Source: a bacterium
Lineage (GTDB): Bacteria; Patescibacteriota; Minisyncoccia; UBA6257; GWB1-50-10
DNA length: 64,000 nucleotides
NCBI GenBank assembly: GCA_030647415.1
Contig: JAUSKB010000026.1
Coordinates: 74,894 to 138,893 of the forward strand
Reading direction: 5' to 3'
Both the position numbers and the translations under genes were made by a program. Below the pieces are notes generated by a model. It had not been told where the DNA came from and searched no databases. It was given only the letters and a program-made list of their open reading frames with translations. Numbering within the stretch: position 1 is the first letter of the stretch; the number at the start of each line of letters is the position of its first letter. This document shows positions 8,347 to 60,596 of the stretch, in pieces.

Positions 8347-8477
8347 GGTGTGGGTGCGGTACTACCGCTCACTATCGAAGTCGGACTTCGATAATTGCGC
8401 TTTGAATTGCGCGAGGCAAGAGGCAACTATGGAGGTTCAACCTCGATAGTCTGGCATGGATGCTAGTCCTTTTCGTG

Positions 8478-8508
8478 ATTGACATTTATGCATAATTAGT
8501 GTTATCAT
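8478..8508 (+). promoter_or_regulatory. conserved promoter-like sequence ATTGACATTTATGCATAATTAGTGTTATCAT (TTGACA ... TGCATAAT / TATCAT)
   Basis: Near-identical copy (30 of 33 positions) at 20614-20644; both head low-GC islets. Confidence 0.5.
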
Positions 8509-8590
8509 TTCATCAGCAACGTCCACTAAGGGCGTGCTTCACAAAAAATCTTCGTGGCCCGAACGAAAGGGCTAACGAAAGGAGATTTAT

Positions 8591-20523: not shown

Positions 20524-20613
20524 TGAAAGAAAAAGGAGGGGAGGAGGGTTTAAAAAATGAGATATAAATGATGGAGATACTAGAAACCAGCATATATGCT
20601 GGTGTTTTTTACT

Positions 20614-20644
20614 ATTGACATTTATGTATAATTGGTGTTAACAT
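20614..20644 (+). promoter_or_regulatory. conserved promoter-like sequence ATTGACATTTATGTATAATTGGTGTTAACAT (second copy)
   Basis: Preceded by hairpin ACCAGCATATATGCTGGT plus T-run; heads the second low-GC islet. Confidence 0.5.
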
Positions 20645-20693
20645 ATAACCAGCGTTTTAGAATAAATCGTTCAAAAAACTAAAGGAGGCTGTA

Positions 20694-24490: not shown

Positions 24491-24934
24491 ATGCTATTCC
24501 GCACCACATGGAGAGCCTACCTGCGACGCATTCGAGCATCGAGCGACGCCACAAAGCGGCGATGGATTGCCGTCGTGGGATTGGGCTCGGGAGGACTCGT
24601 CATCGCCCTCTGGGTCATCTACCTCTCCTCCACGCTGCCCGCCCGACTGGACAGTCGTTCGGGCGGGCCCACCCGGACGAATACGCCTCCGCTCGCGACC
24701 ACAACGGCGTCTGAATCGCCCCAGGAGCGAAGGGGGGATGTGTTTACGAACGGCGTCCGAGGCATCCGGGATATGATGGCAAAACAATGGCAGGGCGCAC
24801 GAAACACTATCGACAGTTCCTGGCAATCGCTGGGGGCGCTTATCACCGAGGGAAACGAATTCTCGGTGACGGGAACCACCACGCCCGCTTTGCCGGAATC
24901 GAGTGAGTCGAGCGAGCCACCGCACACACCATGA
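24491..24934 (+). CDS. hypothetical membrane protein
   Basis: 147 aa with one TM helix; overlaps the gyrA start by 4 nt. Confidence 0.4.
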
Positions 24935-27876
24935 CCACTGCAGAACCAAAGAAAACGCCCGGCGGCTCCATCGAGCCCCGCGAGATTGTGGACGAGCTCC
25001 GGCAGTCCTACCTATCGTACGCCATGTCGGTTATCGTCTCGCGCGCCATCCCGGACGTCCGTGACGGCTTGAAACCGGTGCAACGGCGCATCCTCTGGGC
25101 GATGTGGGACACCGGACTCACCCACAGCGCGAAGTTCAAAAAGTCCGCGAATGTGGTCGGCGAGGTGCTCGGCAAGTACCACCCGCACGGCGACGTTGCG
25201 GTCTACGACACCATGGCGCGTATGGCGCAGGACTTCTCGCTCCGCGCACCGCTCGTCGACGGCCAGGGAAATTGGGGGTGTTTTACTAAAGATACAAAAG
25301 TAAAACTCGCCGACGGTCGAAACGCGAGCTTTAGTGAACTCGTAGAAGAACACCGCCAGGGCAAGAAAAACTATACCTTTGCCGTTAATTCGGCTGGGCT
25401 CATTTCCATCGCGGAAATAAAAAATCCGCGCCTCACAAAAAAGAATGCAGAGCTCGTCAGGGTGATTTTGGACAATGGCGAGAAGATTCGTTGCACGCCG
25501 AATCACCGCTTTATGTTAAAAGACGGCTCCTACAAAGAGGCACACTACCTCACAAACGGGAATAGTCTTATGCCCCTATACGAGAAGTTGTCCACAAAAG
25601 AGGGCCGATTAAACAGCGACCCACGCCCGGTTTTATATGAACTAAATAAAAACCATAAAGTTGTTAGGGTTGAAAAGTTAGCGGAGCAGGAGGATGTTTA
25701 TGATTTAACGATTGATAAATATCATAATTTTGCGCTCGCGGCTGGTGTCTTTGTGCACAATTCGATCGACGGCGACAGCCCGGCGGCAATGCGTTATACT
25801 GAGGCTAGGCTTACAAAAGTCGCCGAGGAGCTCTTGACGGACATCGAGAAGGAGACGGTCGACTGGGGACCAAACTACGACAACTCCCGCGTGGAGCCGC
25901 TCGTCCTGCCGGGGAAGCTCCCGAACCTCATTGTGAACGGCGCGGTCGGCATCGCGGTCGGTATGGCAACCTCCATCCCGCCGCACAACCTCGGCGAGGT
26001 TATAGACGCCATCGCGTACCTTGCCGAGCACGGGGATGCCACGATTGAGGAGCTTATGCAGTTCATCCCGGGTCCCGACTTCCCGACGGGCGGCGTAATC
26101 TACGACACGCGGGCGATCGCCGAAGCCTACCGGACCGGCCGCGGCGCCATCGTCATGCGCGCCGTCGCCGTCATCGAGGAGCGGACGGCGCGAGGGCACC
26201 AGATCGTCGTCACCGAAATTCCCTACCAGGTGAACAAGTCGGACCTCGTCACCTCCATCGCCGAGCTCGTCACGGAGAAGCGAGTGGAGGGCATCCGGGA
26301 CCTCCGCGACGAATCCGATCGCGATGGCCTGCGAATCGTCATCGAGCTGAAAAGCGACGCGGCGCCGCAAAAGATTTTAAATCAGCTCTACAAGTACACC
26401 GAGCTCCAGAAGAGTTTCCACTCAAACCTCCTCGCATTGACCGGCGGACTCCAGCCGGAGGTGCTCTCCCTGAAGGATATCCTCGCCGCATACCTCGACC
26501 ACCGGAAGCTGGTCGTGAAGCGGCGAACAGAGTTTGACCTCCGAAAGGCGACGGAGCGGGCACATATCCTCGAGGGGCTCGTGAAAGCCTTGGACCACAT
26601 CGACCGGATCATCGAGACCATCAAGAAGTCCAAGGACCGCGAGGATGCCCAGCGGAACCTCATCGCGAAGTTCAAGTTCTCGGAGCTCCAGGCGAACGCC
26701 ATCCTCGAAATGAAGCTCGCCGCGCTCGCGGCGCTCGAACGCAAAAAGCTCGAAGATGAACTTACGGAAAAGCGGAATATCATCGAGGAGCTCACTGCGC
26801 TCCTCAAGAACCCGAAGAAGATGCTGGGGCTCATCGTCACGGAGCTCGGCAATCTCAAGGCCGCCTTCCCGAGCGAGCGGCGCACGAAGGTGGTTCCGCA
26901 CGGGCTCACGGAGTTCCGCGAGGAGGACCTGGTGCCGCAGGAGGAGGCAATCGTCACGCTCTCGGTGGACGGCTACATCAAACGGATGCCGCCCGATACC
27001 TTCCGGGCGCAACGGCGCGGCGGGAAGGGGCTCATCGGGTTCGATTTGAAGGACGAGGACCATATCCGACAGCTCATGGCGGCACGAACCCACGATAACT
27101 GCCTCTTTTTCACGGACCGGGGGAAGGTTTTCCAGACCAAGGTGTTCGAGATACCCGCCGCGGAGCGGGCGGCTAAAGGCAAACTCGTGCACAACTTCCT
27201 CGAAGTCCCACCGAACGAGCATATCACGGCGATGGTCGCCTACGGCGGATCGTCGAGCGGGTACCTCACCATGGTGACGCAGGGCGGAACCATCAAGAAA
27301 ACGCCGCTCAAGGACTTTGTGAGCGTCCGGCGGACGGGCATTATCGCCCTCAGGCTCCAGCCGAACGACATTCTTGAGTGGGCCCAGCTCTCCTCCGGCG
27401 GCGACGAGATGCTCCTCGTGACCTCCGCCGGTCAGGCGATCCGGTTCCGTGAAAAGGATGTCCGTCCAATGAGCCGCACCGCGGGCGGCACGCGCGCAAT
27501 CCGCCTGAAGCGAAAGGACCAGGTCGCCGGCGTCGGCATCATACCCAAGGAGGCCGGCGCCGCCGACCGGAAGGGGCTCCGCGTGGTCGCCGTCATGGCC
27601 CGCGGGTTCGCGAAGCAGACGCCGCTCTCGGATTACAAGGTACAGCACCGCGGCGGCGGCGGCATCAAGACCGCGAAGGTGACGGAGAAAACAGGGCCGG
27701 TGATCGCCGCGGCGATCGTCGGACCGGAGACGGAGGTTGTGCTCGCCTTCTCGAAAAAAGGCCAGGCATTGAAAACACCGCTCTCGAACGTCCGCATCGC
27801 GGGTCGCGCGACACAGGGCGTCCGCATTATGAACGTCGAGGCGGATGATGCGCTGATTGGGGTACTCTGTCTGTAG
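24931..27876 (+). CDS. gyrA: DNA gyrase subunit A, containing a mini-intein
   Basis: 981 aa; conserved GyrA blocks ([15 protein letters not shown]-terminal beta-pinwheel repeats); 161-aa insertion between GNWG and SIDGD. Confidence 0.95.
25279..25761 (+). mobile_element. mini-intein (161 aa, no homing-endonuclease domain) within gyrA
   Basis: Begins Cys ([13 protein letters not shown], block A), TPNH block B, ends VFVHN followed by Ser+1; DNA is markedly AT-rich relative to the flanking gyrA sequence. Confidence 0.8.
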
Positions 27877-27918
27877 GTAACAAACAACCTACGACACACA
27901 ACTAACAACCTATTTATC

Positions 27919-28019
27919 CTGTTAGAAGTTTACAAATAATCATTTTCCTATGAATTTGATGGTTATATTCAAAACCAAAACTATGCAGGAATACAAATTT
28001 TGCGTAAACTTCTAACAGG
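27919..28019. repeat. Family A palindromic element, copy A5; the right end CTAACAGG is immediately followed by the ATG at 28020
   Basis: CCTGTTAGAAGTTTACAAATAAT ... TTGCGTAAACTTCTAACAGG-ATGAACCTC. Confidence 0.85.
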
Positions 28020-29324
28020 ATGAACCTCACAAAGAAACAGCTCATCATCCTCGGCGGTATCGTCCTTGTAGTCATCATTCTGGTGCTCATGGGGCTCGGT
28101 ATCATCCCGGGACTGAAGACTGGCCCGGTCACCATGAAACCGGTTTCGCTCACCGTATGGGGCGTAGAGGACGCCGTACAGGAGCTGCAACCCGCGGTGC
28201 AATCGTTCGCCAGGAACCACCCCGGTGCCACCGTCACCTACTGGCAGTTTACCGACACCGAGACGTACCACACCACCCTCCTCGAGGCGCTCGCCGCGGG
28301 CACGGGACCGGATATCTTCGCCATACGGAACACCGAGGTGATGCGCCATGCCTCGAAGCTCGTCGCAATGCCGAAAGAGCGGCTCTCGCTCCTCACTCTC
28401 CGAAACACGTTCGCCCCCGTGGTGGAGCGTGATTTTGTGGTAAACGGCGGGGTCGTTGCGCTGCCGCTTTCCATAGACACGCTCTCACTCATCTATAATC
28501 GGGACCACTTCAACGAGGCGGGCATCGTTTCTGCTCCCGCCACCTGGGACGACCTCGTCGCCATTGCGCCGCGGCTTTCGGTCGTTGACGACTCGCGCCG
28601 GGTCACTCGCGCTTCCATAGCGCTTGGCGGTTCGGGTAGTACCATACCGCGCGTCAGCGACATTATTTCGGCATTGATGCTTCAGGGTGGCATCGTACCC
28701 GTCGGGCCCGACTGGGGCGGCGCCGGTTTCGCAACCCGCGCAGGATATGACGCGGTGAACTTCTACCTGCAGTTTTCGAACACCGGAAGCCCGCTCTACA
28801 CCTGGAATGAGGGGATGCCGAATGCTGTGGATGCGTTCGCACAAGGACGGGTCGCTATGATTATCGACTACGCCCGCGCACTGCCGGACATCCGGGAGCG
28901 AAACCCGCTCATGAACTTCGCCGTCGCACCACTCCCCCAGCAGAAGGGGGCGGAGCGGTCAAAGACCATGGCCTCCTACTGGGGCTATACGGTTTCCCGC
29001 CAATCGAAGCAGGCCCGGCTCGCGTGGGACTTCATCGTGGAAACAGCAACGAACCCGCAGGTGGTCAGTGCATACTTGAATGCTTCAAAACGCCCGCCGG
29101 CGATACCGAAATTCATCGAAGCGTACCGCGACAATCCCAACCTCGCCGTATTCGCCCAGCAAACGCTCACCGCCGATTCCTGGCCGATGCCGAACCGGGA
29201 CCTGGTAGGGGGCATATTCTCCGACATGGTGACGACGGTGCTTGAGAATCGGGCGAGCGTCGAAACGGCCGTAGGCCGCGCGCAGAGCGATATTTCGCGA
29301 CTCATCGGGTCGCGGCCGCGGTAA
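28020..29324 (+). CDS. extracellular solute-binding protein (ABC transporter, family 1), membrane-anchored
   Basis: 434 aa; N-terminal TM anchor, SBP_bac_1-like fold; starts MNL, identical first 9 nt to the gene at 54068. Confidence 0.65.
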   Translation: MNLTKKQLIILGGIVLVVIILVLMGLGIIPGLKTGPVTMKPVSLTVWGVEDAVQELQPAVQSFARNHPGATVTYWQFTDTETYHTTLLEALAAGTGPDIFAIRNTEVMRHASKLVAMPKERLSLLTLRNTFAPVVERDFVVNGGVVALPLSIDTLSLIYNRDHFNEAGIVSAPATWDDLVAIAPRLSVVDDSRRVTRASIALGGSGSTIPRVSDIISALMLQGGIVPVGPDWGGAGFATRAGYDAVNFYLQFSNTGSPLYTWNEGMPNAVDAFAQGRVAMIIDYARALPDIRERNPLMNFAVAPLPQQKGAERSKTMASYWGYTVSRQSKQARLAWDFIVETATNPQVVSAYLNASKRPPAIPKFIEAYRDNPNLAVFAQQTLTADSWPMPNRDLVGGIFSDMVTTVLENRASVETAVGRAQSDISRLIGSRPR

Positions 29325-29333
29325 GCCATTGGG

Positions 29334-29861
29334 ATGTTATACTTACCATTGATGAAATCCTATTTTGCGGTCTCTCTGCTTTTAGTTGGACTGGCTATTG
29401 CCATACCCGTATTCGCCGGCGTCCAAACTGCTAACGCACAAGGGAGCTGCGGCGGCGTGGGGCAACGTTGCTGCCAACCTGCCGAAGCACCCCACCAGTG
29501 CATTACCGCTCTCGTTTGCAGTAACTTCACAAGCCCCATCTGCGAGACCGGAATATGCGCGTGCAGGGGAGTCGCGCCGCCCCCACCAAACCCGAGCACC
29601 ATCACACTCATAAACCCCCTAAGCGGCACGTCCGACGTGCGCGGTCTCATCGAGCGGTTTGTCACCATCCTCCGCGATTTTGCGACGCCCATTGCGGTCC
29701 TCATGATTCTCTTTGGGGCGTTCCGAATCCTCACTGCCGCTGGGGACCCCGCGAAGTTCGAGACGGGGAAAAAGATACTCCTGTACACCGCCATAGGGTA
29801 TGCTATAATCTTTGTCGGGTGGGGAATCACCTCGATTATCGAGAGTCTGCTCTCTTCGTGA
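29334..29861 (+). CDS. VirB2/TrbC-like pilin-type protein with an N-terminal 8-Cys domain
   Basis: Signal peptide, Cys-rich domain, then two hydrophobic helices separated by AAGDPAKFETGKK. Confidence 0.45.
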   Translation: MLYLPLMKSYFAVSLLLVGLAIAIPVFAGVQTANAQGSCGGVGQRCCQPAEAPHQCITALVCSNFTSPICETGICACRGVAPPPPNPSTITLINPLSGTSDVRGLIERFVTILRDFATPIAVLMILFGAFRILTAAGDPAKFETGKKILLYTAIGYAIIFVGWGITSIIESLLSS

Positions 29862-29916
29862 TGATTCCTTATCACACTGTAAAGGTCGGTTTTCCTTCAC
29901 GGTTCAATCCTATCAC

Positions 29917-30279
29917 ATGAAACTATCAACATTCGGAAAGTTTGCTGCCGGTATTGTCTTGGCATCCGCTATCGCGACTCCGTTTGCGGTGCTCGCGCAG
30001 CCGGATCCGACACTCACCGACTTCTCGCTCTCTGGTATTTCAGGCATTTCGAAGCTCGGTGGCAAGATTGGGGGCTGGATGCTCGGCATCCTCCTGGTCC
30101 TCGCGGTCATCTTCATCCTCGCCGCGGCGTTCCTCTACCTGACCTCCGGCGGCGACGAGGCAAAGGTGGGAAAGGCGAAGAGCTACATTATCTACGCCAT
30201 CGTCGCGGTCGTCGTGGGCATCCTCGCGAAAACCATCATCACACTCGTCCAGAGTCTTGTTAACACCGCCGGAACCTAA
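29917..30279 (+). CDS. VirB2/TrbC-like pilin-type protein (paralog 2)
   Basis: Signal peptide; helix-SGGDEAKVGKAK-helix architecture. Confidence 0.45.
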   Translation: MKLSTFGKFAAGIVLASAIATPFAVLAQPDPTLTDFSLSGISGISKLGGKIGGWMLGILLVLAVIFILAAAFLYLTSGGDEAKVGKAKSYIIYAIVAVVVGILAKTIITLVQSLVNTAGT

Positions 30280-30281
30280 TT

Positions 30282-30644
30282 TTGTTAAACCTGTTTAAGG
30301 CACTCGGACCTACCATGAGACATGCAGTTCTTCGTGCTTTCGTTGCCGCTGCGGGTTTTCTTCCCGCGGCGGTTGCGTATGCGCGGGACTACCCCACGAT
30401 AACCAATTACAGCGACCTCATCCGCGTTATAAACACCGCGGCGGATTGGCTCTTCGGAATACTGCTTTCACTCGCGGTCATCTTCGTCATCTTCGCCGCC
30501 TACCGATTCCTGAACGCCGCCGGCGATCCGAAGTCGCTTGAGACCGCAAAGATGACGATTCTGTACGCCATCGTCGCCGTGGTGGTCGCCGTTCTCGCAA
30601 AGACACTCATCGGACTGGTCGACTCATTCTTCTCGTCCGTATAA
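30282..30644 (+). CDS. VirB2/TrbC-like pilin-type protein (paralog 3)
   Basis: Helix-NAAGDPKSLETAKM-helix architecture. Confidence 0.45.
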   Translation: MLNLFKALGPTMRHAVLRAFVAAAGFLPAAVAYARDYPTITNYSDLIRVINTAADWLFGILLSLAVIFVIFAAYRFLNAAGDPKSLETAKMTILYAIVAVVVAVLAKTLIGLVDSFFSSV

Positions 30645-30761
30645 AAGGAGGGGGACGCAGAGGAAAAAGGGGGGTGAACCCTCCTTTTTCTTTTATCATC
30701 CCGTCAGAACGTTCCCGCGCCGCTTCCCCAAACGCCCTAAGTATGGCTGAATAGAGGCTGG

Positions 30762-32141
30762 ATGCATACTGATAACCGTAAACCGCTAACCCTGCTTGTC
30801 GCCCTCGTTGCGGCAACGACGGCGCTCCGACTCGTGAACCTTTCATACCCCGCGAGTCCCGTGTTCGACGAGGCACACTTCGCGACCTACGCGTCCAACT
30901 ACGCGGTCGGGCGGCCATTTTTCGACATCCACCCGCCACTCGGGAAGCTCCTCTATGCACTGCCACTCCTCGGCGCATCCCCAGAAGCGCGCGACATTGA
31001 ATTTATCCGTTTCGGCGTTCAACCCGGCGAACGGTTCACCACGCTTTCCACGAACCGGACCCAGTACGACGCGTTCCCGTACGTCTCGCTCCGGCTCCTT
31101 TCGGTACTCTTCGGCGCACTCCTCATCGTAGCCGTCTACGCCTTCCTCACCGCTCTCTCCGGCAGCCAGGTCGTCGGCCTCCTCGGCGCGCTCTTCGTCG
31201 CGCTCGACAGCGCCTTCGCGGTCGAGGCGCGCGGCATATTCTTGAACTCGCTCTTCCTCGCGCTCGGCTTCTTCGCGCTCGCGGCGGTCGCTCAGAACCG
31301 ACCGCGGCATCTCGCGGGCGGCGCGCTCCTGGGGCTCGCGCTTGCCGTGAAGCTCATCGCCATCGTCTTCGTGCCCGCCTTTATACTGCTCCTCTACGAC
31401 CCGCGGCGCGAGGCGGAGGACCGGGCGCAGGCGCGCCGCCGGGCCGAACGGGGGCTCGCCGCCACGTTCGTGGTACTTACCTGCTTCCTCGTGCTCCCGA
31501 ACAGCTTTATATTCTCCGCACGCGAGCGCCTGGACATCTACCGCGGCATCCCGGTGGCGACGACCACCCCGAGCCGCGCGATACTACTCGGCCGGGAAGC
31601 TATGGAGCGGGTTCCCGCCCTAAAGCACGTCGCGCTCTCCGCATTCGAGTTCGAGCTCTCGATCGCCGGGTACACCGTGGGGGCGCCACCACACACCTAC
31701 CAAAGCGCCTGGTACCGCTGGCCGTTTGCCGCAGGCCCCATGCCGTACTATCTCCAACGGGACCGTGAAGGCGAGGGGGTCATCGCGCTCGCAGGGAACC
31801 CCGCGGTCTGGGGGCTCGCGCTAGGCCTCATGCTCGCGTCGGTTGCGCTCATGCGCCGCTTCCGGGACGATATTGAAAAGGGGTGGCCGCTTTTCGTGCT
31901 CATCGTGGGGTACCTTTCCTCGCTCCTGCCCTTTGCCCTCATCGCCCGTTCAACTTTCATGTACCACTACTTCCCCGCCCTCCTTTTTTCCATCGGTATT
32001 GCCGCGCTCTTCCTCAAGGACTTCTTCGACCGGGTGGACCCCCGAACCGCGCGCGCGGTCGGGCTCATCCTCGTCATCGCCCTCCTCGCGGGCTTCTGGC
32101 TCATATTGCCCTACACGCTGGGGCTGGCGTCGTTTGCATAA
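30762..32141 (+). CDS. dolichyl-phosphate-mannose-protein mannosyltransferase (PMT, GT39)
   Basis: 459 aa; FDEAHFATYA and HPPLGKLL motifs; multiple TM segments. Confidence 0.8.
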   Translation: MHTDNRKPLTLLVALVAATTALRLVNLSYPASPVFDEAHFATYASNYAVGRPFFDIHPPLGKLLYALPLLGASPEARDIEFIRFGVQPGERFTTLSTNRTQYDAFPYVSLRLLSVLFGALLIVAVYAFLTALSGSQVVGLLGALFVALDSAFAVEARGIFLNSLFLALGFFALAAVAQNRPRHLAGGALLGLALAVKLIAIVFVPAFILLLYDPRREAEDRAQARRRAERGLAATFVVLTCFLVLPNSFIFSARERLDIYRGIPVATTTPSRAILLGREAMERVPALKHVALSAFEFELSIAGYTVGAPPHTYQSAWYRWPFAAGPMPYYLQRDREGEGVIALAGNPAVWGLALGLMLASVALMRRFRDDIEKGWPLFVLIVGYLSSLLPFALIARSTFMYHYFPALLFSIGIAALFLKDFFDRVDPRTARAVGLILVIALLAGFWLILPYTLGLASFA

Positions 32142-34404: not shown

Positions 34405-34715
34405 AGTGGCCTCCTTTCATTTTTGTGATTATTGAGTTGTGTATATTCTGGCGCAATTATAGCAGTTTTGTATAAAATTGTCAAATGCGCCGGTTTGTGG
34501 TGCAATCACTGGAGCAAGGCCCCCTTCGTACCTGCATTTCTAGCCTCTGGGCGGTAGGGGGCGCCGGATACCCCTGGCGTACTCCGTTTCACACCCGTAC
34601 CCCGTTCGCCGCCAATCAACCCGGCGACCCCACCCTAGTTCGTTTCCCACCTCCGCCGTCCGCCGCACCCGCCCCCGCCATGCAGTCAGCCTATTCCCGC
34701 GGCGTGCGTTTCAGT

Positions 34716-34758
34716 TGCTAAAATAACTCGACGGCCGTTCTGTTATTTTAGCAGTACT
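34716..34758. repeat. hairpin repeat GTTGCTAAAATAAC-TCGACGGCCGTTC-TGTTATTTTAGCAG (copy 1)
   Basis: 11-bp stem; an inverted-orientation copy lies at 35468-35515; the pair flanks the Cas2-like gene. Confidence 0.75.
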
Positions 34759-34836
34759 CCAAACACGATATCATACACATATACGCAAAAAACGCGGCGG
34801 CGGGTTGTCGGCGATGATGCGGATGCCGCAATTGGG

Positions 34837-35463
34837 CTAGACAAGACTCCGGAGTGTGCCGCGTTCGGTCACTGAAAAAATCTGGATGTGTGGAATAAGC
34901 CCAAGTTCGGCCACGTTATCAAGGAGCACCTGCGGGATGACCACTTTCCCGACAAAAACACTCTGCTGCACCTTATGAAAACCGAGCTGTATGAGCACCG
35001 CCCGAAGCCAGTCACGCTTCCGGCGCTCCCGTTCCGGAACATCGAATGCGACGATAACAACCTTCTTCGATGGCTCCCCACGGTACCGGTCCGGGGCATA
35101 GGAAACGGCGAGATTACTACGAAACTCAACCAAACGCTCGAGGCCAAATTTGGTGAGTATGAGCTTCGCCGCGCCGCCGGAAACACGGGTTTCGGCGACA
35201 AGCCCCGTCTTTTTGAGGTGGGTGAGCATACTCCAGTACCGTTGCCACTCGCGGCTCGATTCTTTCGCGAGTTCGCGGTCTCTGACAAGCTCTCCGCGAA
35301 CCCGCTCGAACGATCCGCGCGATGCGCCGCAGGGGAGCACGAGCATCGCGATGCCGAGGTCCATGACACTTAATGCCGCGCCTTCGAGCGCTTCAAGGAT
35401 CGCCTTTGTCTTTGCACCACGCACCACCCGCTGTTCCGGCACTCTTTTCTTCTTTGGCGCCAT
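34837..35463 (-). CDS. winged-HTH + Cas2-like (VapD/Cas2-fold) domain protein
   Basis: 208 aa; the C-terminal VVIVAFDVPERERRKRDWLRAVLIQLGFHKVQQSVFVGKV matches the Cas2 core pattern (YDV..RRLRKV....G.RVQ.SVF); there is no cas1 and no array. Confidence 0.45.
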   Translation of the reverse strand: MAPKKKRVPEQRVVRGAKTKAILEALEGAALSVMDLGIAMLVLPCGASRGSFERVRGELVRDRELAKESSREWQRYWSMLTHLKKTGLVAETRVSGGAAKLILTKFGLERLVEFRSNLAVSYAPDRYRGEPSKKVVIVAFDVPERERRKRDWLRAVLIQLGFHKVQQSVFVGKVVIPQVLLDNVAELGLIPHIQIFSVTERGTLRSLV

Positions 35464-35467
35464 CTTC

Positions 35468-35515
35468 TTAGTATACTCCGCTGCTAAAATTATCCAACGG
35501 CCGTTCGGTTATTTT
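35468..35515. repeat. hairpin repeat GCTGCTAAAATTATCCAACGGCCGTTCGGTTATTTTAGCAAC (copy 2, inverted relative to copy 1)
   Basis: Near-exact reverse complement of the repeat at 34716-34758. Confidence 0.75.
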
Positions 35516-35707
35516 AGCAACTGTCATACTCACCCCTCCGTGTGGTTTCGCGGAGTGTGTATGTAGTGTGCGGCCTCGTGCACCCGGCGCGGTGGTTTCC
35601 GCTTTGACCACAGGGTATGCTGAACTTCAGGCGATACAATGCCCGAGTGGTGAAACTAGCATTCACCCCGCGTCATTTCTACGCTAGACTAATTGTGTAT
35701 AAAGGGG

Positions 35708-51570: not shown

Positions 51571-53883
51571 ATGCGCACGAAACGAACGGTAAGCATCTTC
51601 CTCGCCGCCGCGCTCCTCACCGCGGGCGGGTTCTTTGCTGTAACTAATACTGCACACGCGCTGATGTACGGCAATAATTCTAATCCTATTAAGCAGTGGC
51701 TAGTAGGTACAGGCCTCGACATCCTCCAGGCGTTCGCTACCGGCATTTCGTACATCCTGAACTTCCTTGGGGGTCTCGCCTTCGCCTTCGGGAACATGCT
51801 GACCCAGACGATGTTGGCACTCAACTACCAGGTGCTCGACAGTTCGAACACCATCGTAACCGTCGGGTGGGGCATCACGCGGGATGTGGCGAACCTCGGC
51901 TTCGTCCTCCTCATTATCTTGGTCGCGCTCGCGACCATCGTCCGCTACCCCTCGGAGTACCAGGCGCAAAAGCTCCTGCCCCGCCTCATCGCCGCCGCCC
52001 TCCTTGTGAACTTCTCGATCGCCATCGTAACGCCGCTCATTGATTTTTCGGACACCTTGACGCAGAGCTTCGCATCGCGTATCGGTGGCGATGATTTGCC
52101 CGGCATTCCTGGGTCCGGATTCGTCGGGCGAATCTCAAATGCCTTCGGCCCCCATCGGCTTCTTATCCCCCCTGCGGGAGGTTTACCTGAACCGGTAGGT
52201 TTCAATACTTTTAGCAAGGCGTTCCTCACGACCGTCGGCGGGCTCTTTTTCAGCTTCATATTCACCTGGCTCGCCGCCCTCGTCATGCTCGCCATCGCCT
52301 TCATGCTCTTCCTCCGGTATGTGCACCTGACCTTCCTCCTCGCCATCGCGCCTATTGTCTGGCTCTTCTGGGTCTTCCCGGGGCTCGAGAAGCACTGGAG
52401 CACCTGGTGGAGCGATTTCCTCAAGTGGGTTTTCTTCGCGCCCGCGGTCATGTTCTTCATCTACCTCGCGGTTACGGCGATGGATGCTATGGGATCGATG
52501 CCTGTCGAGGGGCTCACGGGGTCGGACTTCTTTGAAACCTTTATTCTTTCGATCATCTCGCAGGGAACCCAGATGGCCGTCCTCGGCGCCTTCCTTGTCG
52601 GCTCGCTCATCGTCGGCCAGAAGTTCGGCATCGCCGGGGCGGGGGCGGCATTGAACATCGCAAAGGCGGCAAAAACGCAGGGGCTGAAGCTCGCGGGCCA
52701 GCGGGTGAAGCTCGCGGGGCGGGCGGCGGCGGGGAAGGCTAGTACGGTACTCAAGGGCGGTCTCGAAGAAAAGGGTTTGATGAAGTACCCGAAGAAGGGG
52801 TTGAATCTCATGGGCCGTGGCACCTCGTTCGTGCTCGGCGGTGGTAAAAAGTTAGATGAGGCATTAAAGGTAAAGGACACTGATTCGGGTTTCAAGAAGC
52901 TTGGCAAGCGTTTTGCGGGTGGTGTTCTTGGCGTCACTGGCGGACGCGCCCTCTTGAAGGGTGCGGGTGGGCTTGAGAAAACACTCACTACCGCCTCCGG
53001 CCGCGACGTGAAGGTGGACTCGGTCGGCGGCGCGATGTTCAAGACCGTGAAGGGGGAGTTCCTGAAAGAGATGGGCTTTGAACAGGAAAAGCCTGAGAAG
53101 ACGACGGACGATCATGTGAAGGATCTGAAGGATGTTGTGAAACAGAAAAAAGCATTGAAAGACAAGGGCGCGCTCACGCCAGAATCAGAGAAGGAGTGGG
53201 ATAAGAAGATCGAGCGGGCGAAGGGGATGGTCCGCAACTCGCTCGAGCGGCCAGGGACCCCAGAGGGGTTGGACAGGCAAATCGAGCAGCTGAAGAGCAA
53301 GCAGGCGGAATTCTACGACCCGAAGAATGGCCTCGATGGCAGCGTATTCGACGACCTCATTAAGGAAAGGGTGATTGAGCGGGATCGGATCATAGAACGC
53401 GAGGGCAGGAAATCCGACGCGACACGCGAGGTTGAGGCGAAAATAGGCGAGCTGAACGGAGGGCGAATCGCCGCGCTGAAGGCGGGGGACCCGGAGGTCA
53501 CCGTCAAAACAAAACAGACGCAACCGGACGGCACCGAAGTGGAGGTTGAGCGGCAGCAGAAGTTGAGTTCGCTGTTTGATGAACAGATCGTGGCCGCGGA
53601 AAAAATCCGAACCGCCCTATTCGACGTCGACGAGCGACTGCGAAAGAACGAGCCGTGGAAGGACCAACAGCTCCAAATGGGGCTTGAAAAACTTCGAGAC
53701 AACATTACGGGCTTGAACAAGGGAATCACCGGTCTCTCCAGGGTCGTTGACAACACGAAAAACGCCGCGTTAGTGAAGCCGGGGTTGATCCAATGGGAAC
53801 CGTTTAAACAAACAGAAGAGAAGGCTAGCGGCGGTGCGAATAAGAAAGGAGATGGTGGCACCGTAGACACCGACACCTCGTAA
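51571..53883 (+). CDS. VirB6/TrbL-like polytopic membrane protein with a long K/E/G-rich C-terminal tail
   Basis: 770 aa; signal peptide, at least 6 TM helices over the first 400 aa, then a hydrophilic repetitive tail. Confidence 0.5.
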   Translation: MRTKRTVSIFLAAALLTAGGFFAVTNTAHALMYGNNSNPIKQWLVGTGLDILQAFATGISYILNFLGGLAFAFGNMLTQTMLALNYQVLDSSNTIVTVGWGITRDVANLGFVLLIILVALATIVRYPSEYQAQKLLPRLIAAALLVNFSIAIVTPLIDFSDTLTQSFASRIGGDDLPGIPGSGFVGRISNAFGPHRLLIPPAGGLPEPVGFNTFSKAFLTTVGGLFFSFIFTWLAALVMLAIAFMLFLRYVHLTFLLAIAPIVWLFWVFPGLEKHWSTWWSDFLKWVFFAPAVMFFIYLAVTAMDAMGSMPVEGLTGSDFFETFILSIISQGTQMAVLGAFLVGSLIVGQKFGIAGAGAALNIAKAAKTQGLKLAGQRVKLAGRAAAGKASTVLKGGLEEKGLMKYPKKGLNLMGRGTSFVLGGGKKLDEALKVKDTDSGFKKLGKRFAGGVLGVTGGRALLKGAGGLEKTLTTASGRDVKVDSVGGAMFKTVKGEFLKEMGFEQEKPEKTTDDHVKDLKDVVKQKKALKDKGALTPESEKEWDKKIERAKGMVRNSLERPGTPEGLDRQIEQLKSKQAEFYDPKNGLDGSVFDDLIKERVIERDRIIEREGRKSDATREVEAKIGELNGGRIAALKAGDPEVTVKTKQTQPDGTEVEVERQQKLSSLFDEQIVAAEKIRTALFDVDERLRKNEPWKDQQLQMGLEKLRDNITGLNKGITGLSRVVDNTKNAALVKPGLIQWEPFKQTEEKASGGANKKGDGGTVDTDTS

Positions 53884-54067: not shown

Positions 54068-55072
54068 ATGAACCTCTCGAATATAACTTTTGAGCTGCTC
54101 TCCGAACGGTACGAGGAGATACCGGAACGGTTTCGGGAGCTCCTCGAGTCACCCGGCACAAAAACAACACTCGTGCGCATCGGGGCGCAACACGCGCTTG
54201 ACCACGAACGGCAAACACTCCTTGAGGCGCTGGTCGGTCTTGTCTTCACCGGTTTCCTCTCCCCGGATGACCTCGCGGGGGAGTTTGTCGACCGCCTCTT
54301 CCTGAACTTCGTCCACGCCCGCGCGCTCGCCCGCGAGGTGGACGAGACCTTCTTCGCGCCGCACCGCCGCGACCTCGTTCGCGTCTACAACCCCGTGGGC
54401 GGGGTACCGCAGGGCCCAACCGTCCGGAGTGCGGAACGACCTATGATTGGATTGCCTTCACAAGTAGGAAAGACGATTTCACTTGAATCCATCGGCGCTT
54501 CAGGCGGTAGGGAACAAAAGCTTCCCATTAACGAGGTTGCGGCGCCGCTCGTGATTCTCGGCTCCAGCTCCCCCACCCTCCGCAAACCGATTATTCCGAA
54601 CCGCCCGCCGGAACGCCTGTTTGCCAGCCAGGCAGGCCTGCCTACCCATCCGACCGAGTTATCCGGGCGAGCCGGACAAACGGTTTCGGAGAAGCCGGTG
54701 TACCACTCACCCTTTTCCTTCCGGTTCCCGTTCCGCTCACCGCAGGCGGCGCGTACCCCGCTGGGCGACTCCACGGGACCGACCGCGACCGTCCGATTGC
54801 CCGGCAGTGCGGCACCAGCGCAGAAGAAGGATGGGCTTCATATTGTCCACTATGCGGAAACACGCGGGAGACTCGGCCCGCCGCTATCAACCGGAAAGGG
54901 GGGGGTAGTGAACCTGGACCAGCTGGGGGCGCAGCAAAGAAAAGAGACAAGAGAAAAAGGACAAGAGACGCCCATCGCACCGACAACCGACAACCGACAA
55001 CCGACAACCATCCCGAAACCACAGCCGAAGATCGATGGGAACACCATAGACCTCCGGGCAAATAAACTCTAA
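54068..55072 (+). CDS. hypothetical Pro-rich protein containing an in-frame variant of the 28-bp repeat
   Basis: 334 aa; starts MNL, identical 5' end to the 28020 gene; PTHPTELSGRAGQT is encoded by the repeat at 54641-54672. Confidence 0.5.
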   Translation: MNLSNITFELLSERYEEIPERFRELLESPGTKTTLVRIGAQHALDHERQTLLEALVGLVFTGFLSPDDLAGEFVDRLFLNFVHARALAREVDETFFAPHRRDLVRVYNPVGGVPQGPTVRSAERPMIGLPSQVGKTISLESIGASGGREQKLPINEVAAPLVILGSSSPTLRKPIIPNRPPERLFASQAGLPTHPTELSGRAGQTVSEKPVYHSPFSFRFPFRSPQAARTPLGDSTGPTATVRLPGSAAPAQKKDGLHIVHYAETRGRLGPPLSTGKGGVVNLDQLGAQQRKETREKGQETPIAPTTDNRQPTTIPKPQPKIDGNTIDLRANKL

Positions 55073-55125
55073 ATCCGAAACTCTAAATCCTAAACAAGCA
55101 CGAAATTCTAAACTCTAAACCACTG
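55066..55125. repeat. Family C repeat (CTCTAAATCCGAAAC(C/T)CTAAATCCTAAACAA...), forward arm C1
   Basis: Inverted partner at 55516-55580; together they bracket the four-helix-bundle gene. Confidence 0.8.
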
Positions 55126-55129
55126 CATT

Positions 55130-55495
55130 ATGGAACCGAGCGTGGGCTTGAAACGGTATGATTTGGAGGCGCGAACGCTTCAATTTACAAGGGATGTCAT
55201 TTCGTTCGTTTCCGCCCTTCCCCGGAGTATTGCCAATATTGAAATCATCAAACAGCTCATCCGGGCGACTGGTTCGGTGGGAGCGAATTATATAGAAGCG
55301 AATGAGTCCGTAAGCAGAAAGGACTTTCTCTTACGAGTTAAGATTTCCAAAAAAGAGTCGCGAGAGGCAATATACTGGTTGGAGCTCGTACAATGCTCAA
55401 ATGAGCAATGTGAAGTTAGGAGGCGTGAATTGATCCGAGAAGCGACCGAGCTCATGAAAATTCTCGGTTCAATCGTCGAAAAATCATCTCGGTGA
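55130..55495 (+). CDS. four-helix-bundle protein (TIGR02436 / 23S rRNA intervening-sequence protein; Avd-like)
   Basis: 121 aa; RATGSVGANYIEANESVSRKDFLLRVKISKKESREAIYWLEL matches the family core; lower GC than neighbours. Confidence 0.7.
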   Translation: MEPSVGLKRYDLEARTLQFTRDVISFVSALPRSIANIEIIKQLIRATGSVGANYIEANESVSRKDFLLRVKISKKESREAIYWLELVQCSNEQCEVRRRELIREATELMKILGSIVEKSSR

Positions 55496-55515
55496 TATTG
55501 CATTCATGATTTTTC

Positions 55516-55580
55516 CCTGTTTCGGATTTGAGATTTGGAATTTGTTTAGGGTTTAGGGTTTCGAATTTAGAATTTATCTG
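55516..55580. repeat. Family C repeat, reverse arm C2 (GTTTAGGGTTTAGGGTTTCGAATTTAGAATTT)
   Basis: Reverse complement of the C1 motifs. Confidence 0.8.
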
Positions 55581-55581
55581 T

Positions 55582-56079
55582 ATGAATTTTCAGGTCCCCC
55601 AATTCATCTCGGAAAAGGCCCACATCATCGGGCCGCTCACCTTCGCCCAGCTCGGCTACCTCATGGGCGCGGGCTTTATCGCGTTCCTTTTCTTCTCATT
55701 TTTCACGCCGTTCGTCGCGGGCTCGTTTTCTGCGGTGTTTGTCGGGGTCGCGCTCGCGCTCGCGCTCGGAAAGTTCAATGGGGTGAGTATTGCATCCATC
55801 CTTGTCGGCGCGGTCGGGTACCTCTGGAAGCCACGGGTGTACACCTGGCAACGGACATTTGCCACACAGACCTTTGACGCCTCAAGCGTAGATAAAATAG
55901 AGGCGATGCGGCGGAAGATGGGCGTCGAGGAAAAACTCAAGGCGATTGCGCTTTCGGTCACCACCGGAAAGATCTTCGCGCCAAAGGCGCCGGAGGTCGC
56001 CGCTGATGCCCAGCGATTCCAAATGGTGAGCTACCTGACCGGTGAAAAGAAGCTCGCGAAGAGAATCGACTACAGGTAG
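55582..56079 (+). CDS. small membrane protein, possibly VirB3-like (by position upstream of virB4)
   Basis: 166 aa from the internal ATG; 2-3 TM helices; matches the VirB3-VirB4 gene order. Confidence 0.3.
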   Translation: MNFQVPQFISEKAHIIGPLTFAQLGYLMGAGFIAFLFFSFFTPFVAGSFSAVFVGVALALALGKFNGVSIASILVGAVGYLWKPRVYTWQRTFATQTFDASSVDKIEAMRRKMGVEEKLKAIALSVTTGKIFAPKAPEVAADAQRFQMVSYLTGEKKLAKRIDYR

Positions 56080-56089
56080 AATAAGGTAA

Positions 56090-56228
56090 GCTCTAAATCC
56101 GAAACCCTAAATCCTAAACAAATTCGAAATTCCAAACACACTCATAAATGATGATGAAACATGATGCCATTTCGAATTTCGTGCTTGGAATTTGTTTAGA
56201 GTTTCGATATTAGGATTTAGAATTTCTA
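56090..56228. repeat. Family C palindromic element C3 (forward and reverse arms, no cargo)
   Basis: GCTCTAAATCCGAAACCCTAAATCCTAAACAAATTCGAAATTCCAA ... TTGGAATTTGTTTAGAGTTTCGATATTAGGATTTAGAATTTC. Confidence 0.8.
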
Positions 56229-56893
56229 TGGAAAAGGGTCTCCCCACACAATCATTTGTCGCCGTCAAAGAGGTTCGAAACGGCATCGTCCACCTGAAAG
56301 ACGGCGGCCTGCGCCAGCTCCTCATCGTCTCCGGCGTGAACTTCGACCTGAAGGCGGAGGAGGAGCAGGCACTTATTCTGAACACCTTCCAAAATTTCCT
56401 GAACACGCTCGACTTCACGATGCAGTGCTTCATCCATTCCCGGAAGGTGAATGTGGACACCTACCTGGACCGCATGCGCTCGCGGCAGCTCGAGGAACCG
56501 AATGAGCTCTTGAAGATCCAGATTGCCGAGTATATCGACTTCATCGCCGCGTTCGTGGACCAGAACGCCATCATATCAAAAACCTTCTTTGTGGTGGTCC
56601 CGTACGATCCGCCAGTGACGTCCGGAGCGGCGACCAAGGGCGTGCTTGGCTTCTTCAAGAAACGCGAGGCGGCGACGGTCATCGCGGACGAGGCGGCAAC
56701 GCTCCAGGAGCACTTGAAGCAGCTCGAACAGCGGGTGACACAGGCGACCGAGGGCCTCCTCCAGATCGGGCTACGGGCAGTCCGGCTCCGCGACGACGAG
56801 ACCATCGAGTTGTTCTACAACCTCTACAATCCGGAACTGGTCGAGAAGAAGGGGCTCGACATAGCAAAGCCAGACAAAGCCGGAAAATCCTAA
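56228..56893 (+). CDS. virB4: VirB4/ConE-family ATPase, N-terminal fragment (split gene)
   Basis: 222 aa; IVHLKDGGLRQLLIVSGVNFDLKAEEEQALILNTFQNFLNTLDFTMQ fits the CagE/TrbE/VirB4 N-terminal domain pattern; 222+587 aa equals a normal VirB4 length. Confidence 0.5.
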   Translation: MEKGLPTQSFVAVKEVRNGIVHLKDGGLRQLLIVSGVNFDLKAEEEQALILNTFQNFLNTLDFTMQCFIHSRKVNVDTYLDRMRSRQLEEPNELLKIQIAEYIDFIAAFVDQNAIISKTFFVVVPYDPPVTSGAATKGVLGFFKKREAATVIADEAATLQEHLKQLEQRVTQATEGLLQIGLRAVRLRDDETIELFYNLYNPELVEKKGLDIAKPDKAGKS

Positions 56894-57012
56894 GCACGAA
56901 ACCCTAAATCCTAAACAAACCCGAATGTTCCAAATCCGAAACGGTGCGCATGCGTTTGTGGTTTCGTGCTTCGATATTGTTTCGGATTTCGATATTAGAA
57001 TTTAGGATTTCT
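56893..57012. repeat. Family C palindromic element C4, lying between the two virB4 fragments
   Basis: AGCACGAAACCCTAAATCCTAAACAAACCCGAATGTTCCAAATCCGAAAC ... GTTTCGTGCTTCGATATTGTTTCGGATTTCGATATTAGAATTTAGGATTTCT. Confidence 0.8.
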
Positions 57013-57038
57013 AACACAGAACTTATACCACTACGACC

Positions 57039-59461: not shown

Positions 59462-60151
59462 ATGGATTTCGCGCGCCACGTCGTATCGCTCGCTATTCTC
59501 GCGGGGATCCTCGGAACACTTACGTTCATTCCCGCACGAGCCCAAGAGCCACCACAAGCGTCCGGGTTGAATCTCATCCTCACCTGGGAGGCGGAGGTTT
59601 TCTCGCCGCCCAGCTACCGCGGCAGGAGTATCCCCCCGCCCGGCGGAGCGGCGGTGGTGATGCTTGCGGCGACGGACGGCCGGGGGGCGCTCACTGACCT
59701 CTCACCGTACCGGATCACCTGGTCGCGCGGCGGAAAGTTCGTGGAGGGCGGGACGGGCCTCACCACCCGCTCCCTCACCCTCGGCGCGAGCCCAAACCGG
59801 GAACTGGTGCGCGCGTCGGTCTACGGCTCGACCGGAGACCTCGTCGCGGAGGTGTCAATGATTATCCCCACGGCAAAGCCACGCATCGTGCTCTCCCCAG
59901 AACCGGCGGCTGAAAATCCAGGGTTCATTCTCCTCCGCGCCCTCCTCCTCTCATTCAGCGTCCCTGATATCGAGGACATCACCGTGTCTTGGGACGTTCC
60001 CGGGGGGGCGCCGGGCGACTCGTTCGACACCTTTTTCGTTCCCGCGGTTCCCAACCTATCCGTTGTGGGATCTGTCACCGCGCGGAACCCTCAACGGGTG
60101 CTCGAGTATGCGAAGCAGTTCATTAAATTGCCCTATGCGACATTCGAGTAA
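59462..60151 (+). CDS. secreted hypothetical protein (T4SS-like cluster)
   Basis: 229 aa with a signal peptide. Confidence 0.45.
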   Translation: MDFARHVVSLAILAGILGTLTFIPARAQEPPQASGLNLILTWEAEVFSPPSYRGRSIPPPGGAAVVMLAATDGRGALTDLSPYRITWSRGGKFVEGGTGLTTRSLTLGASPNRELVRASVYGSTGDLVAEVSMIIPTAKPRIVLSPEPAAENPGFILLRALLLSFSVPDIEDITVSWDVPGGAPGDSFDTFFVPAVPNLSVVGSVTARNPQRVLEYAKQFIKLPYATFE

Positions 60152-60596
60152 AATTTTCTGGCTCGCGCTCCCCGCGCTCCTTCTAGTCGCATCGCAGGTC
60201 GAGGCGCGCGCGGGCTTCCTCGGCGCCTCATCCACCGAGGATTTCATCTCAAAGCTCTACACCTACAGCATCGGGTTGGGCGGCCTCCTCGCAGTCGGCG
60301 CGATCGTCACGGGCGGCATCCTCATCGCGACCTCCGGGGTCGTGAACAAGCAGCAGCTCGGCCGCGACCTCATCGCCGGGGCGCTCTGGGGGCTCGCCCT
60401 CCTCTTAGGCGCCTATTTCCTTCTAAAGACCGTAAACCCGCAACTCGTTAAATTGAAAGTGCCCGGCATCACACTCTGCACTGGCACCCAAACACCGGAG
60501 CGCGACGGGTGTCTCAAGGCCTGCGTTCCGCGCGAGAACAAGATCCCCGGCGTCGAGTGCTACCCGACGGCGGCAACCACGACTCCTCCCATCTAA
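60135..60596 (+). CDS. VirB2-like pilin-type protein with a C-terminal 4-Cys tail
   Basis: Signal peptide; helix-VVNKQQLGRD-helix architecture; start chosen at the internal ATG overlapping the previous gene. Confidence 0.4.
   Translation: MRHSSKIFWLALPALLLVASQVEARAGFLGASSTEDFISKLYTYSIGLGGLLAVGAIVTGGILIATSGVVNKQQLGRDLIAGALWGLALLLGAYFLLKTVNPQLVKLKVPGITLCTGTQTPERDGCLKACVPRENKIPGVECYPTAATTTPPI

Follow-up and report, generated by a model that had tools for sequence, protein, structure and literature searches.

A predicted VirB2-like pilin array with an apparently exchangeable cysteine-rich cassette in a Patescibacteria genome

Results

Three consecutive pilin-like genes follow a gene for a solute-binding protein

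We analyzed a 64,000-nucleotide (nt) stretch of a Patescibacteria genome (the window; assembly GCA_030647415.1, contig JAUSKB010000026.1, positions 74,894-138,893, forward strand), in which a preliminary description had singled out three consecutive small genes as encoding VirB2/TrbC-like pilins. Reading the window sequence located these genes, here called g1, g2 and g3, where they had been placed on the + strand, directly downstream of a gene for a solute-binding protein (SBP) and separated from it by 27 nt (Table 1). The start of g3 was revised, as the previously assigned position 30282 is an upstream TTG. For g1, an alternative start at 29334 appears in a Logan gene call; the NCBI name of the product is 'MAG: pilin [bacterium]'. 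Two further paralogs, g4 and g5, are associated with a type IV secretion system (T4SS) gene cluster farther downstream.

Table 1. Features of the g1-g3 locus and of the T4SS cluster, in window coordinates
Feature	Coordinates	Strand	Remarks
Inverted pair of the 16-nt motif GTAAACTTCTAACAGG	27918-28019	.	+ copy directly abuts the SBP start codon
SBP	28020-29324	+	Orphan MalE-like SBP_bac_1 with N-terminal membrane anchor; PF01547 E=1.9e-27
g1 hypervariable 5' cassette	29325-29597	+	Short intergenic region, signal peptide, Cys module, first linker codons
g1	29352-29861	+	ATG 29352, 169 aa; same start in NCBI
g1 signal peptide	29352-29438	+	aa 1-29
g1 Cys module	29448-29564	+	aa 33-71
g1 Pro-rich linker	29565-29612	+	aa 72-87
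g1 hairpin core	29613-29858	+	aa 88-169
g2	29917-30279	+	ATG 29917, 120 aa, no Cys
g3	30315-30644	+	ATG 30315 (best start), 109 aa, no Cys
Intrinsic-terminator-like hairpin and T-run	30665-30699	+	10-bp stem, then CTTTTATCAT; closes SBP-g1-g2-g3
PMT-family (GT-C) protein O-mannosyltransferase-like gene	30762-32141	+	PF02366 E=2.7e-26, PF16192 E=4.9e-23
Candidate VirB6/PrgH-like channel subunit	51571-53883	+	Polytopic, ~6 hydrophobic segments; weak CD3337/EF1877 match, E=0.003
PrgI/VirB3-like protein	55528-56079	+	PF12666 25.9 bits (cutoff 27), E=1.5e-5; two hydrophobic segments
TrsD-like protein, resembling the VirB4 N-terminal domain	56192-56893	+	NF041427 TrsD E=8.5e-11, below cutoff
VirB4-like conjugal transfer ATPase, CD1110 family	57039-58802	+	NF045971 361.8 bits (cutoff 325); TraG P-loop E=6.5e-27
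g4	60135-60596	+	Divergent pilin-class paralog adjoining VirB4; PF18895 21.0 bits, below cutoff
g5	61924-62961	+	Pilin domain and 220-aa C-terminal domain; PF18895 23.9 bits, below cutoff

g1, g2 and g3 belong to the T4SS pilin family

With 36.4, 37.1 and 48.0 bits, respectively, g1, g2 and g3 each exceed the curated gathering cutoff of the T4SS_pilin family (PF18895; 26.6 bits), which makes them members of this family by Pfam standards. A search of 1.84 billion representative proteins yielded 5,442 clusters at E<=0.001. All 106 relatives tested match PF18895, and 73 of the 106 also match the TrbC/VirB2 profile PF04956 (E<=0.01, best 3.2e-10).

The common layout that had been proposed for the three proteins is supported by hydropathy and by the -3/-1 rules, a heuristic used here instead of SignalP: a signal-like peptide with an AxA cleavage site (ANA↓Q in g1, VLA↓Q in g2, AYA↓R in g3) precedes two long hydrophobic helices that flank a short charged loop (AAGDPAKFETGKK, SGGDEAKVGKAK and AAGDPKSLETAK). 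The trio is thus predicted to have the organization of VirB2-type pilins, with a cleavable signal peptide, two hydrophobic helices and a short polar loop. An AlphaFold2 model of g1, based on the alignment of its orthologs, shows helices 95-127 and 132-167 packed as a hairpin (predicted local distance difference test [pLDDT] 83-88). Mutual identity among the three proteins is low, amounting to 26-47% when the last 75 residues are compared and to 21-29% for the full alignment. The highest value, 46.6%, is that of the paralogs g2 and g3, which also share nucleotide repeats D9 and D12 and are both members of a fast-evolving g2/g3 class. The trio also displays what characterizes arrays of VirB2-like genes, that is, 2-11 tandem pilin genes of low mutual identity and a Patescibacteria-type VirB4.

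g1 carries an eight-cysteine module between signal peptide and core

An eight-Cys N-terminal domain had been noted in g1. Indeed, exactly eight Cys residues lie within 39 residues, in a segment that follows the cleavage site of the signal peptide and precedes the NPL motif conserved in the family; given a Cys content of 0.29% in 13 large proteins of the window, such a cluster has a chance probability P of about 3e-13. The number of Cys residues is even in each of the orthologs that carry the module (8, 8, 6, 6, 6 and 6), and these share a framework C-x6/8-CC-x5/10-C...C followed by a Pro-rich linker; two orthologs have a C-C-CC-C-C pattern. The even counts and the shared framework are consistent with a disulfide-rich knot, as the preliminary description had suggested.

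Such modules are exceptional within the g1 class. Among 31 species-level g1-type orthologs, the insert between signal peptide and NPL motif has a median length of 10 amino acids (aa), and at least four Cys residues occur in it only in the present lineage and in one Jorgensenbacteria genome. In a set of 127 single-domain representatives, 14 have at least four Cys residues in the N-terminal region and 100 have none or one. Cys-rich decoration of these predicted pilins recurs in other lineages: a second Cys framework is found in a Jorgensenbacteria-like lineage, and the members P0027, P0045, P0060 and L009 bear Cys modules at the N- as well as the C-terminus or differ in framework. P0027 and P0045 are 85% identical in the core, with divergent Cys modules.

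The g1 core is nearly invariant and its 5' cassette hypervariable

Our main comparison was that of the window with L002, a close relative whose flanking DNA is ~84% identical. Over the g1 core, the two share 97.6% aa identity, with a ratio of nonsynonymous to synonymous divergence (dN/dS) of 0.03 at a dS of 0.49, compared to 82.9% (dN/dS about 0.15) for SBP, 85.6% (about 0.16) for the PMT-family protein, 62.6% (0.35) for g2 and 67.3% (0.24) for g3. As the core dS is close to that of the flanks, the g1 core was inherited vertically. The signal peptide and module of g1, by contrast, show 29.5% aa identity to those of L002 and are unalignable, so that dN/dS is not computable. DNA homology to both L002 and L005 ends near the SBP stop codon and restarts at 29591-29598, within the linker, delimiting the 5' cassette listed in Table 1.

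For pairs with the same synonymous divergence of the core (dS 0.43-0.49), the modules are either 73% identical, as between the window and P0002, or about 30%. In the comparison of the window with P0002, module dN is 0.18, 8 times the core dN.

Mosaic sequences indicate replacement of the cassette by recombination

A metagenome scan yielded just one more close ortholog, the contig L084, which matches L002 at 99.9% identity along 977 nt that include linker, core and downstream genes. The two part abruptly at the first Pro codons of the linker: upstream of this junction, homology between them is undetectable, and L084 carries a module of the P0003 type in place of that of L002. The junction maps to the same linker position as the homology boundary of the window. 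L084 is itself a mosaic, with a signal peptide closest to that of the window (76% nt identity), a module closest to P0003 and a core 100% identical to that of P0005. Likewise, the window and P0002, which stem from separate assemblies, have the module in common (81% nt identity) but not the signal peptide (60%). This mosaic pattern argues for recombination within and around the cassette. The sequences thus indicate that signal peptide and module are replaced as a block by recombination, with the downstream junction in the linker, so that near-identical strains can differ in their cassettes.

In a six-frame scan of the 64-kb window for silent donor copies, the Cys framework was found only in g1. 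A diversity-generating retroelement was considered as the source of variation and rejected: no template/variable repeat pair was found, no repeat involves 29.3-29.6 kb, no reverse transcriptase domain was seen in the open reading frames (ORFs) scanned, and the differences among the variants concern length and Cys pattern instead of being limited to A positions. A gene of the Avd family (PF05635) lies at 55130-55495 and lacks a template/variable repeat partner. A phage origin of g1 is likewise unsupported, as a tblastn search of 50,697 phage records gave no match.

The array belongs to a conserved gene block with a fixed order of pilin classes

Loci were compared in 71 reference genomes from Jorgensenbacteria, Brennerbacteria, Liptonbacteria, Paceibacterota, Saccharibacteria, Microgenomates, Peribacteria, Berkelbacteria and other groups; relatives' loci were retrieved with the ortholog alignment, as the broad family alignment has no conserved stretch. 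A block of GyrA, SBP and pilin array is present in 37-44 of these genomes, with an SBP homolog at most 300 bp from the array in 44 loci, GyrA ~1.3 kb upstream of it in 43 and Lactamase_B_3 retained in 41; VirB4 lies within 10 kb of the array in only 3. The proximity of SBP could be taken as proof of functional coupling. We rejected this argument, as GyrA and Lactamase_B_3 are kept equally often and a palindrome and a motif intervene in L002 (see below).

g1-type pilins occur in arrays of up to nine, and usually at least three, pilin genes. In the 44 SBP-linked arrays, the first gene is of the g5 type in 37 and the second of the g1 type in 34; the commonest order is g5-g1-g2, and the classes g5, g4, g1 and g2/g3 keep a fixed order phylum-wide. 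This recurrence implies that the paralogs are old and suggests that they have distinct structural roles instead of reflecting recent antigenic diversification. The array members look like backbone, accessory and enzyme-bearing components, not interchangeable antigenic copies. Of the diversification proposed in the preliminary description, therefore, the part concerning the paralogs does not hold, as their divergence is old and their order fixed, whereas variation as such is real and confined to the g1 5' cassette.

A monoderm-type T4SS cluster encodes two further pilin-class proteins

The trio had been described as remote from a T4SS-like cluster, and indeed the monoderm-type cluster, with its VirB4 gene of the mating-pair-formation (MPF) type MPF-FATA, lies ~27 kb downstream. 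Genes for the core components VirB4, VirB3 and VirB6 can all be assigned, although the PrgI/VirB3-like protein scores below cutoff and the VirB6-like candidate is weak.

The fourth paralog had been recognized previously together with its 4-Cys C-terminal tail, which we confirm (Cys at positions 115, 126, 130 and 142). g4 is 40-47% identical to g4-type members from L020, L027, L036, L037, L039, L050 and L069 that match the family hidden Markov model (HMM), and its four Cys residues are kept in P0167 and P0168. A fifth paralog, g5, which had been overlooked, is named 'pilin' by NCBI and has an N-terminal motif CxxxxxxCxxC. Members of the g4 and g5 classes match a family HMM in related arrays. 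As g4 and g5 lie beside VirB4 here and g5-type genes head the SBP-linked arrays of relatives, these classes tie the remote array to the T4SS.

The C-terminal domain of g5 matches VanY below cutoff (E=0.023; 14.9 bits, cutoff 25) and contains the motifs SAFRPxxYQ, SPHxRGxGVD and DEVHF, the latter two of which are invariant in four homologs. Its AlphaFold2 model has a mean pLDDT of 52.6; a fold search placed VanYB ninth at E=2.4, and a profile search of the PDB found nothing. We tentatively assign it as a putative LAS/M15 (VanY-like) zinc peptidase. If real, this peptidase could supply the VirB1-like cell-wall hydrolase, which appears to be missing from most T4SS loci of Patescibacteria.

Several related pilins are of unusual architecture. 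g5-type pilins (L006 7305-8799 and most SBP-linked loci) share C-x6-C-x2-C ahead of helix 1 and one more Cys close to the C-terminus, and this conserved 4-Cys pattern points to a disulfide staple that is particular to the array's first gene. Cys-rich C-terminal tails of 160-215 aa occur in L027 (500-1378), L069 (7558-8439), L037 (8464-9360), L039 (8411-9265) and L040 (8967-9866); these tailed pilins are of the g4 type, plus one of the g1 type. Some pilin tails contain lytic-transglycosylase-like motifs ES...GLFQIN (SLT_3 at E=0.005 and 0.012, sub-threshold) and others LAS-like motifs H-x-S-x-H...D...H-x-H, and pilin-hydrolase fusions may thus be a recurring theme. One g2-type tail exceeds the cutoff of Dickkopf_N. 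In addition, we found single polypeptides in which short linkers connect 2-7 tandem T4SS_pilin domains (P0012, 606 aa; P0020, 820 aa; P0022, 641 aa). These may represent genuine 'polypilins', membrane proteins of 14 helices, or products of gene-calling read-through in lineages with alternative genetic codes.

Between the T4SS genes, at 55063-57015, lie AT-rich inverted repeats with arms of ~50-60 nt (families D6/D7). One pair flanks the above-mentioned PF05635 gene, whose family comprises 23S rRNA intervening-sequence and Avd proteins; two other pairs form intergenic hairpins, of which the segment 56080-56235 folds at -33.9 kcal/mol (z = -3.25). This layout resembles an rRNA intervening-sequence stem with an ORF in the loop.

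SBP, g1, g2 and g3 appear to form one transcription unit

The SBP, which also matches MalE/GanS weakly, is an orphan in that no ABC permease or ATPase gene was found among the neighboring genes scanned. The 16-nt motif that precedes its gene occurs in 20 copies in the window (0 expected), with pairs at 10 intergenic sites; the copies, whose consensus can also be written GTAAA[CA][TC]TCTAACAGG, mostly form inverted pairs ~85 nt apart (824/908, 955/1036, 18216/18301, 20421/20507, 27918/28004, 32156/32239, 41297/41490, 45796/45879, 53968/54052 and others). The + copy often abuts a start codon, as at SBP (28020) and at an ORF starting at 54068. The motif matches no Rfam family and may be a leader, regulatory or boundary element; the pair upstream of SBP is likely a leader or boundary element of the transcription unit. 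Since the window has no copy between SBP and g1, one copy ends at the SBP start codon and a terminator-like hairpin follows g3, SBP-g1-g2-g3 looks like a single transcription unit in this genome. In L002, the motif and a perfect 16-bp palindrome lie between SBP and g1.

The PMT-family protein encoded downstream of the terminator could possibly glycosylate the Pro/Ser/Thr linker of g1. As a general feature this was rejected, as a PMT gene adjoins the array in only 7 of 59 loci with enough downstream flank; glycosylation of the linker would be lineage-specific at best. An Rfam scan of the window detected two tRNAs only, none near the trio.

Discussion

Based on these results, we favor, as the probable interpretation, that the trio is part of a chromosomal operon of VirB2-like pilins, recruited by a VirB4 machine to form a surface filament, in which the 5' cassette of g1 is swappable. 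This proposal builds on the family membership and hairpin architecture of the trio, the presence of T4SS machinery, the extreme constraint on the g1 core, and the turnover and mosaicism of the cassette, all of which are demonstrated here. The pilins would be exported by Sec, have their signal peptides cut at the AxA sites and sit in the membrane as two-helix hairpins with both ends outside. The monoderm T4SS (VirB4, TrsD, PrgI/VirB3 and the VirB6-like protein, along with g4 and g5) would draw on them to build or prime the filament, with g1 as the conserved backbone subunit, and g2 and g3 as a faster-evolving accessory class. The 39-residue, eight-Cys module of g1, presumably disulfide-bonded, would be carried on the filament exterior via the Pro-rich linker; because pilin termini in F and T pili face outward, we infer by analogy that the module is displayed there. 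The turnover of the cassette would likely be driven by partner-cell recognition or by escape from pilus-targeting phages.

What the module might do is a more speculative matter. It is conceivable, though in our estimate doubtful, that it serves as a strain-specific recognition determinant on the pilus, in host binding or phage evasion, and is exchanged as a cassette by natural transformation and homologous recombination. The exchanged unit would then comprise signal peptide, module and regulatory leader, with the conserved SBP gene on one side and the fixed linker and core on the other acting as homology arms. Host attachment by the trio, which the preliminary description had raised, is by inference a conceivable function.

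A number of observations weigh against this interpretation or parts of it. The PF04956 profile, which the preliminary description had named as a way to verify its VirB2/TrbC-like assignment, matches none of g1-g5 even at E<=1. Since only relatives match it, the link to classical VirB2 is indirect and runs via these relatives; the assignment as pilins stands through PF18895, the direct one to TrbC/VirB2 does not. In a Foldseek comparison of the g1 model with the PDB, the matches were generic helical hairpins, none at E<=0.001, with the archaeal conjugation pilin 8dfu ranked 35th, and a search of PDB sequences with the family profile found no solved pilin; such fold and profile searches are uninformative, as expected of a simple hairpin. 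The Cys module has a pLDDT of about 35, and five Cys modules scanned individually against Pfam could be assigned to no family, a match to EB module at E=0.036 being the only one. The sole alignable pair, the window and P0002 (dN/dS about 0.2), gives no support for positive selection on the module. L084, which provides the sharpest evidence for recombination, is a single 2.5-kb contig that ends in the variable region and may be a chimeric assembly. For this pilin family, no filament, processing, disulfide or binding has been reported in any Patescibacterium, and reviews speak merely of a 'potential to elaborate conjugative pili' (PMC12857230, a 2025 review). Finally, fusions to enzyme-like domains and chains of up to seven pilin domains fit a membrane anchor at least as well as a filament subunit.

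This last point leads to the main rival explanation, unlikely in our judgment yet to be taken seriously, that the hairpin is a stable two-helix membrane anchor, both ends of which face outward, and that it displays extracellular modules such as Cys knots and cell-wall hydrolase-like domains at the cell surface or at the mouth of the T4SS channel, without any filament. Large appended domains would be hard to accommodate if each subunit of a helical filament bore one, and they are not rare: g4/g5-type C-terminal tails extend over 130-250 aa with sub-threshold SLT_3 and VanY matches, L073 has an N-terminal region of 453 aa, and 33 of the 160 top representatives, P0012 among them, contain 2-7 tandem pilin domains per chain. 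Moreover, monoderm MPF-FATA systems are classically without pili (PMC12102498). However, the constraint on the g1 core, loop included, exceeds that on neighboring housekeeping genes, is more than a simple anchor should require and fits tight packing of subunits, most of the relatives tested are linked to TrbC/VirB2 by profile, and small undecorated members dominate the family, as judged from Cys counts and from the short inserts of the g1 type. Much less probable is that the array works with the orphan SBP, for example as a capture or uptake apparatus, independently of the T4SS. SBP is far more often close to the array than VirB4 is, has no ABC partners nearby and is here separated from g1 by a short gap that lacks the leader motif, in a unit terminated after g3. 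Yet adjacency may simply be inherited gene order, given the equal retention of GyrA and Lactamase_B_3; the palindrome and leader motif of L002 suggest separate transcription there; and g4- and g5-type pilins adjoin VirB4 in this genome.

We consider it very improbable that g1-g3 are T4SS-exported effector or toxin subunits analogous to those of pertussis toxin, as was proposed for the homologous array of the Saccharibacterium TM7x (McLean et al. 2020, PMC7427843). The signal peptides on which this idea can draw are real features, but two long hydrophobic helices dominate each protein, the T4SS_pilin model is passed, the claimed similarity to Ptx S1 amounts to 11% identity (PMC7427843), and later work has reinterpreted such arrays as VirB2-like pilins (PMC12102498, PMC12857230, PMC10633639). 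We also give little credence to the idea that the cassette swap is artefactual and that the module merely diverges fast, by point mutations and indels on a Cys scaffold, as conotoxins and defensins do. All module types have the same basic framework, which fits common descent, the window and P0002 have diverged gradually, and the doubts about L084 as an assembly have been mentioned. Still, a transition from 99.9% identity over 977 nt to no homology within a few codons is impossible by point mutation, the window and P0002 reveal mosaicism without recourse to L084, and a chimeric join would itself need another strain with an identical linker sequence.

Pilin arrays as such are already known from Patescibacteria, where 441 VirB2-like arrays, each comprising 2-11 genes that are on average 25% identical, were listed for 383 assemblies (Quinonero-Coronel et al. 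2025, PMC12102498), after homologous arrays had first been described as 'Sec secreted' in TM7x (McLean et al. 2020, PMC7427843). Like these, the present array consists of tandem signal-peptide genes related to PF18895/PF04956 with low paralog identity (21-47%), is chromosomal and goes with a monoderm, MPF-FATA-like VirB4; no relaxase was seen in the window. A pilin array inside the T4SS cluster of Southlakia epibionticum is essential (Wang et al. 2023, PMC10633639; PMC12857230), unlike which the present one lies 27 kb from its T4SS cluster, and the role of T4SS/pilin arrays has been called 'completely unknown' (PMC11665869). We found no mention of Cys-rich modules on these pilins in the literature searched, nor of the GyrA-SBP-array block, the class order or strain-level module replacement in PMC12102498, PMC10633639 and PMC7427843. 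The old block with its conserved class order, the fixed g1 core set against a variable cassette, and the replacement of that cassette therefore appear to be new.

With classical VirB2/TrbC/TraA pilins (PF04956; T-pilus, F-pilus), the trio shares small size, a signal peptide, two helices with a charged loop, and VirB4/VirB3-like partners; it differs in the missing direct PF04956 match and in the monoderm host. We know of no classical VirB2-family pilin with a disulfide-rich N-terminal domain. A parallel exists to Neisseria pilE/pilS, where a conserved assembly core is likewise combined with a variable, surface-exposed disulfide region (the exposure being predicted in our case) that is replaced by recombination; Neisseria are naturally competent, and competence has been reported for Patescibacteria (PMC10633639). 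However, type IV pilins form a different superfamily, and their variable part is C-terminal with silent pilS copies as donors, while that of g1 is N-terminal, includes the signal peptide and has no silent copy in the window. Multiple divergent VirB2 paralogs are also found in the host-associated Bartonella and Anaplasma, where the expansions have been read as diversity for host interaction or immune evasion (cited in PMC12102498); here, in contrast, the classes are old, their order is conserved phylum-wide and variation is concentrated in the module appended to one paralog. The module itself resembles knottins, conotoxins and defensins in its even-numbered, conserved Cys framework with hypervariable loops, and the C-C-CC-C-C pattern of two orthologs is typical of inhibitor cystine knots. 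Unlike those peptides, it is tethered to a pilin instead of being secreted free, and it has no family match and no confident fold.

T4SS and pilin arrays are essential in the single Patescibacterium tested genetically. A pilin with an invariant core and a strain-swappable, putatively disulfide-rich module is a concrete, testable candidate for a specificity determinant in the choice of hosts by episymbionts. If the module acts in recognition, this would be the first case of a modular, swappable adhesin forming part of a VirB2-family pilin, and typing of modules in metagenomes could serve to predict with which partners uncultivated Patescibacteria associate. For annotation, it is useful that the GyrA-SBP-array block and the class order within it are conserved.

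Other features of the window

The gyrA gene upstream of SBP (24931-27876) contains a mini-intein of 161 aa at 25279-25761 (Cys1 CFTKD... ...VFVHN↓S). Most GyrA homologs align over residues 1-121 and again from ~256-278 to 981, without the mini-intein; in the case of L075, the alignment is continuous (residues 4-981), and an insert may be present at the same site. A Cas2-like/PaaX_M-domain gene on the minus strand (34837-35463) is flanked by two 43-nt repeats (84% identical; 34711-35519), both of which include a palindrome (GCTAAAATAAC...GTTATTTTAGC); a CRISPR array was not observed. A 64-nt repeat at 8454-8517 and 20590-20653 (77% identical) lies in low-GC intergenic stretches and includes a near-consensus promoter-like sequence (TTGACATTTATG.ATAATT).

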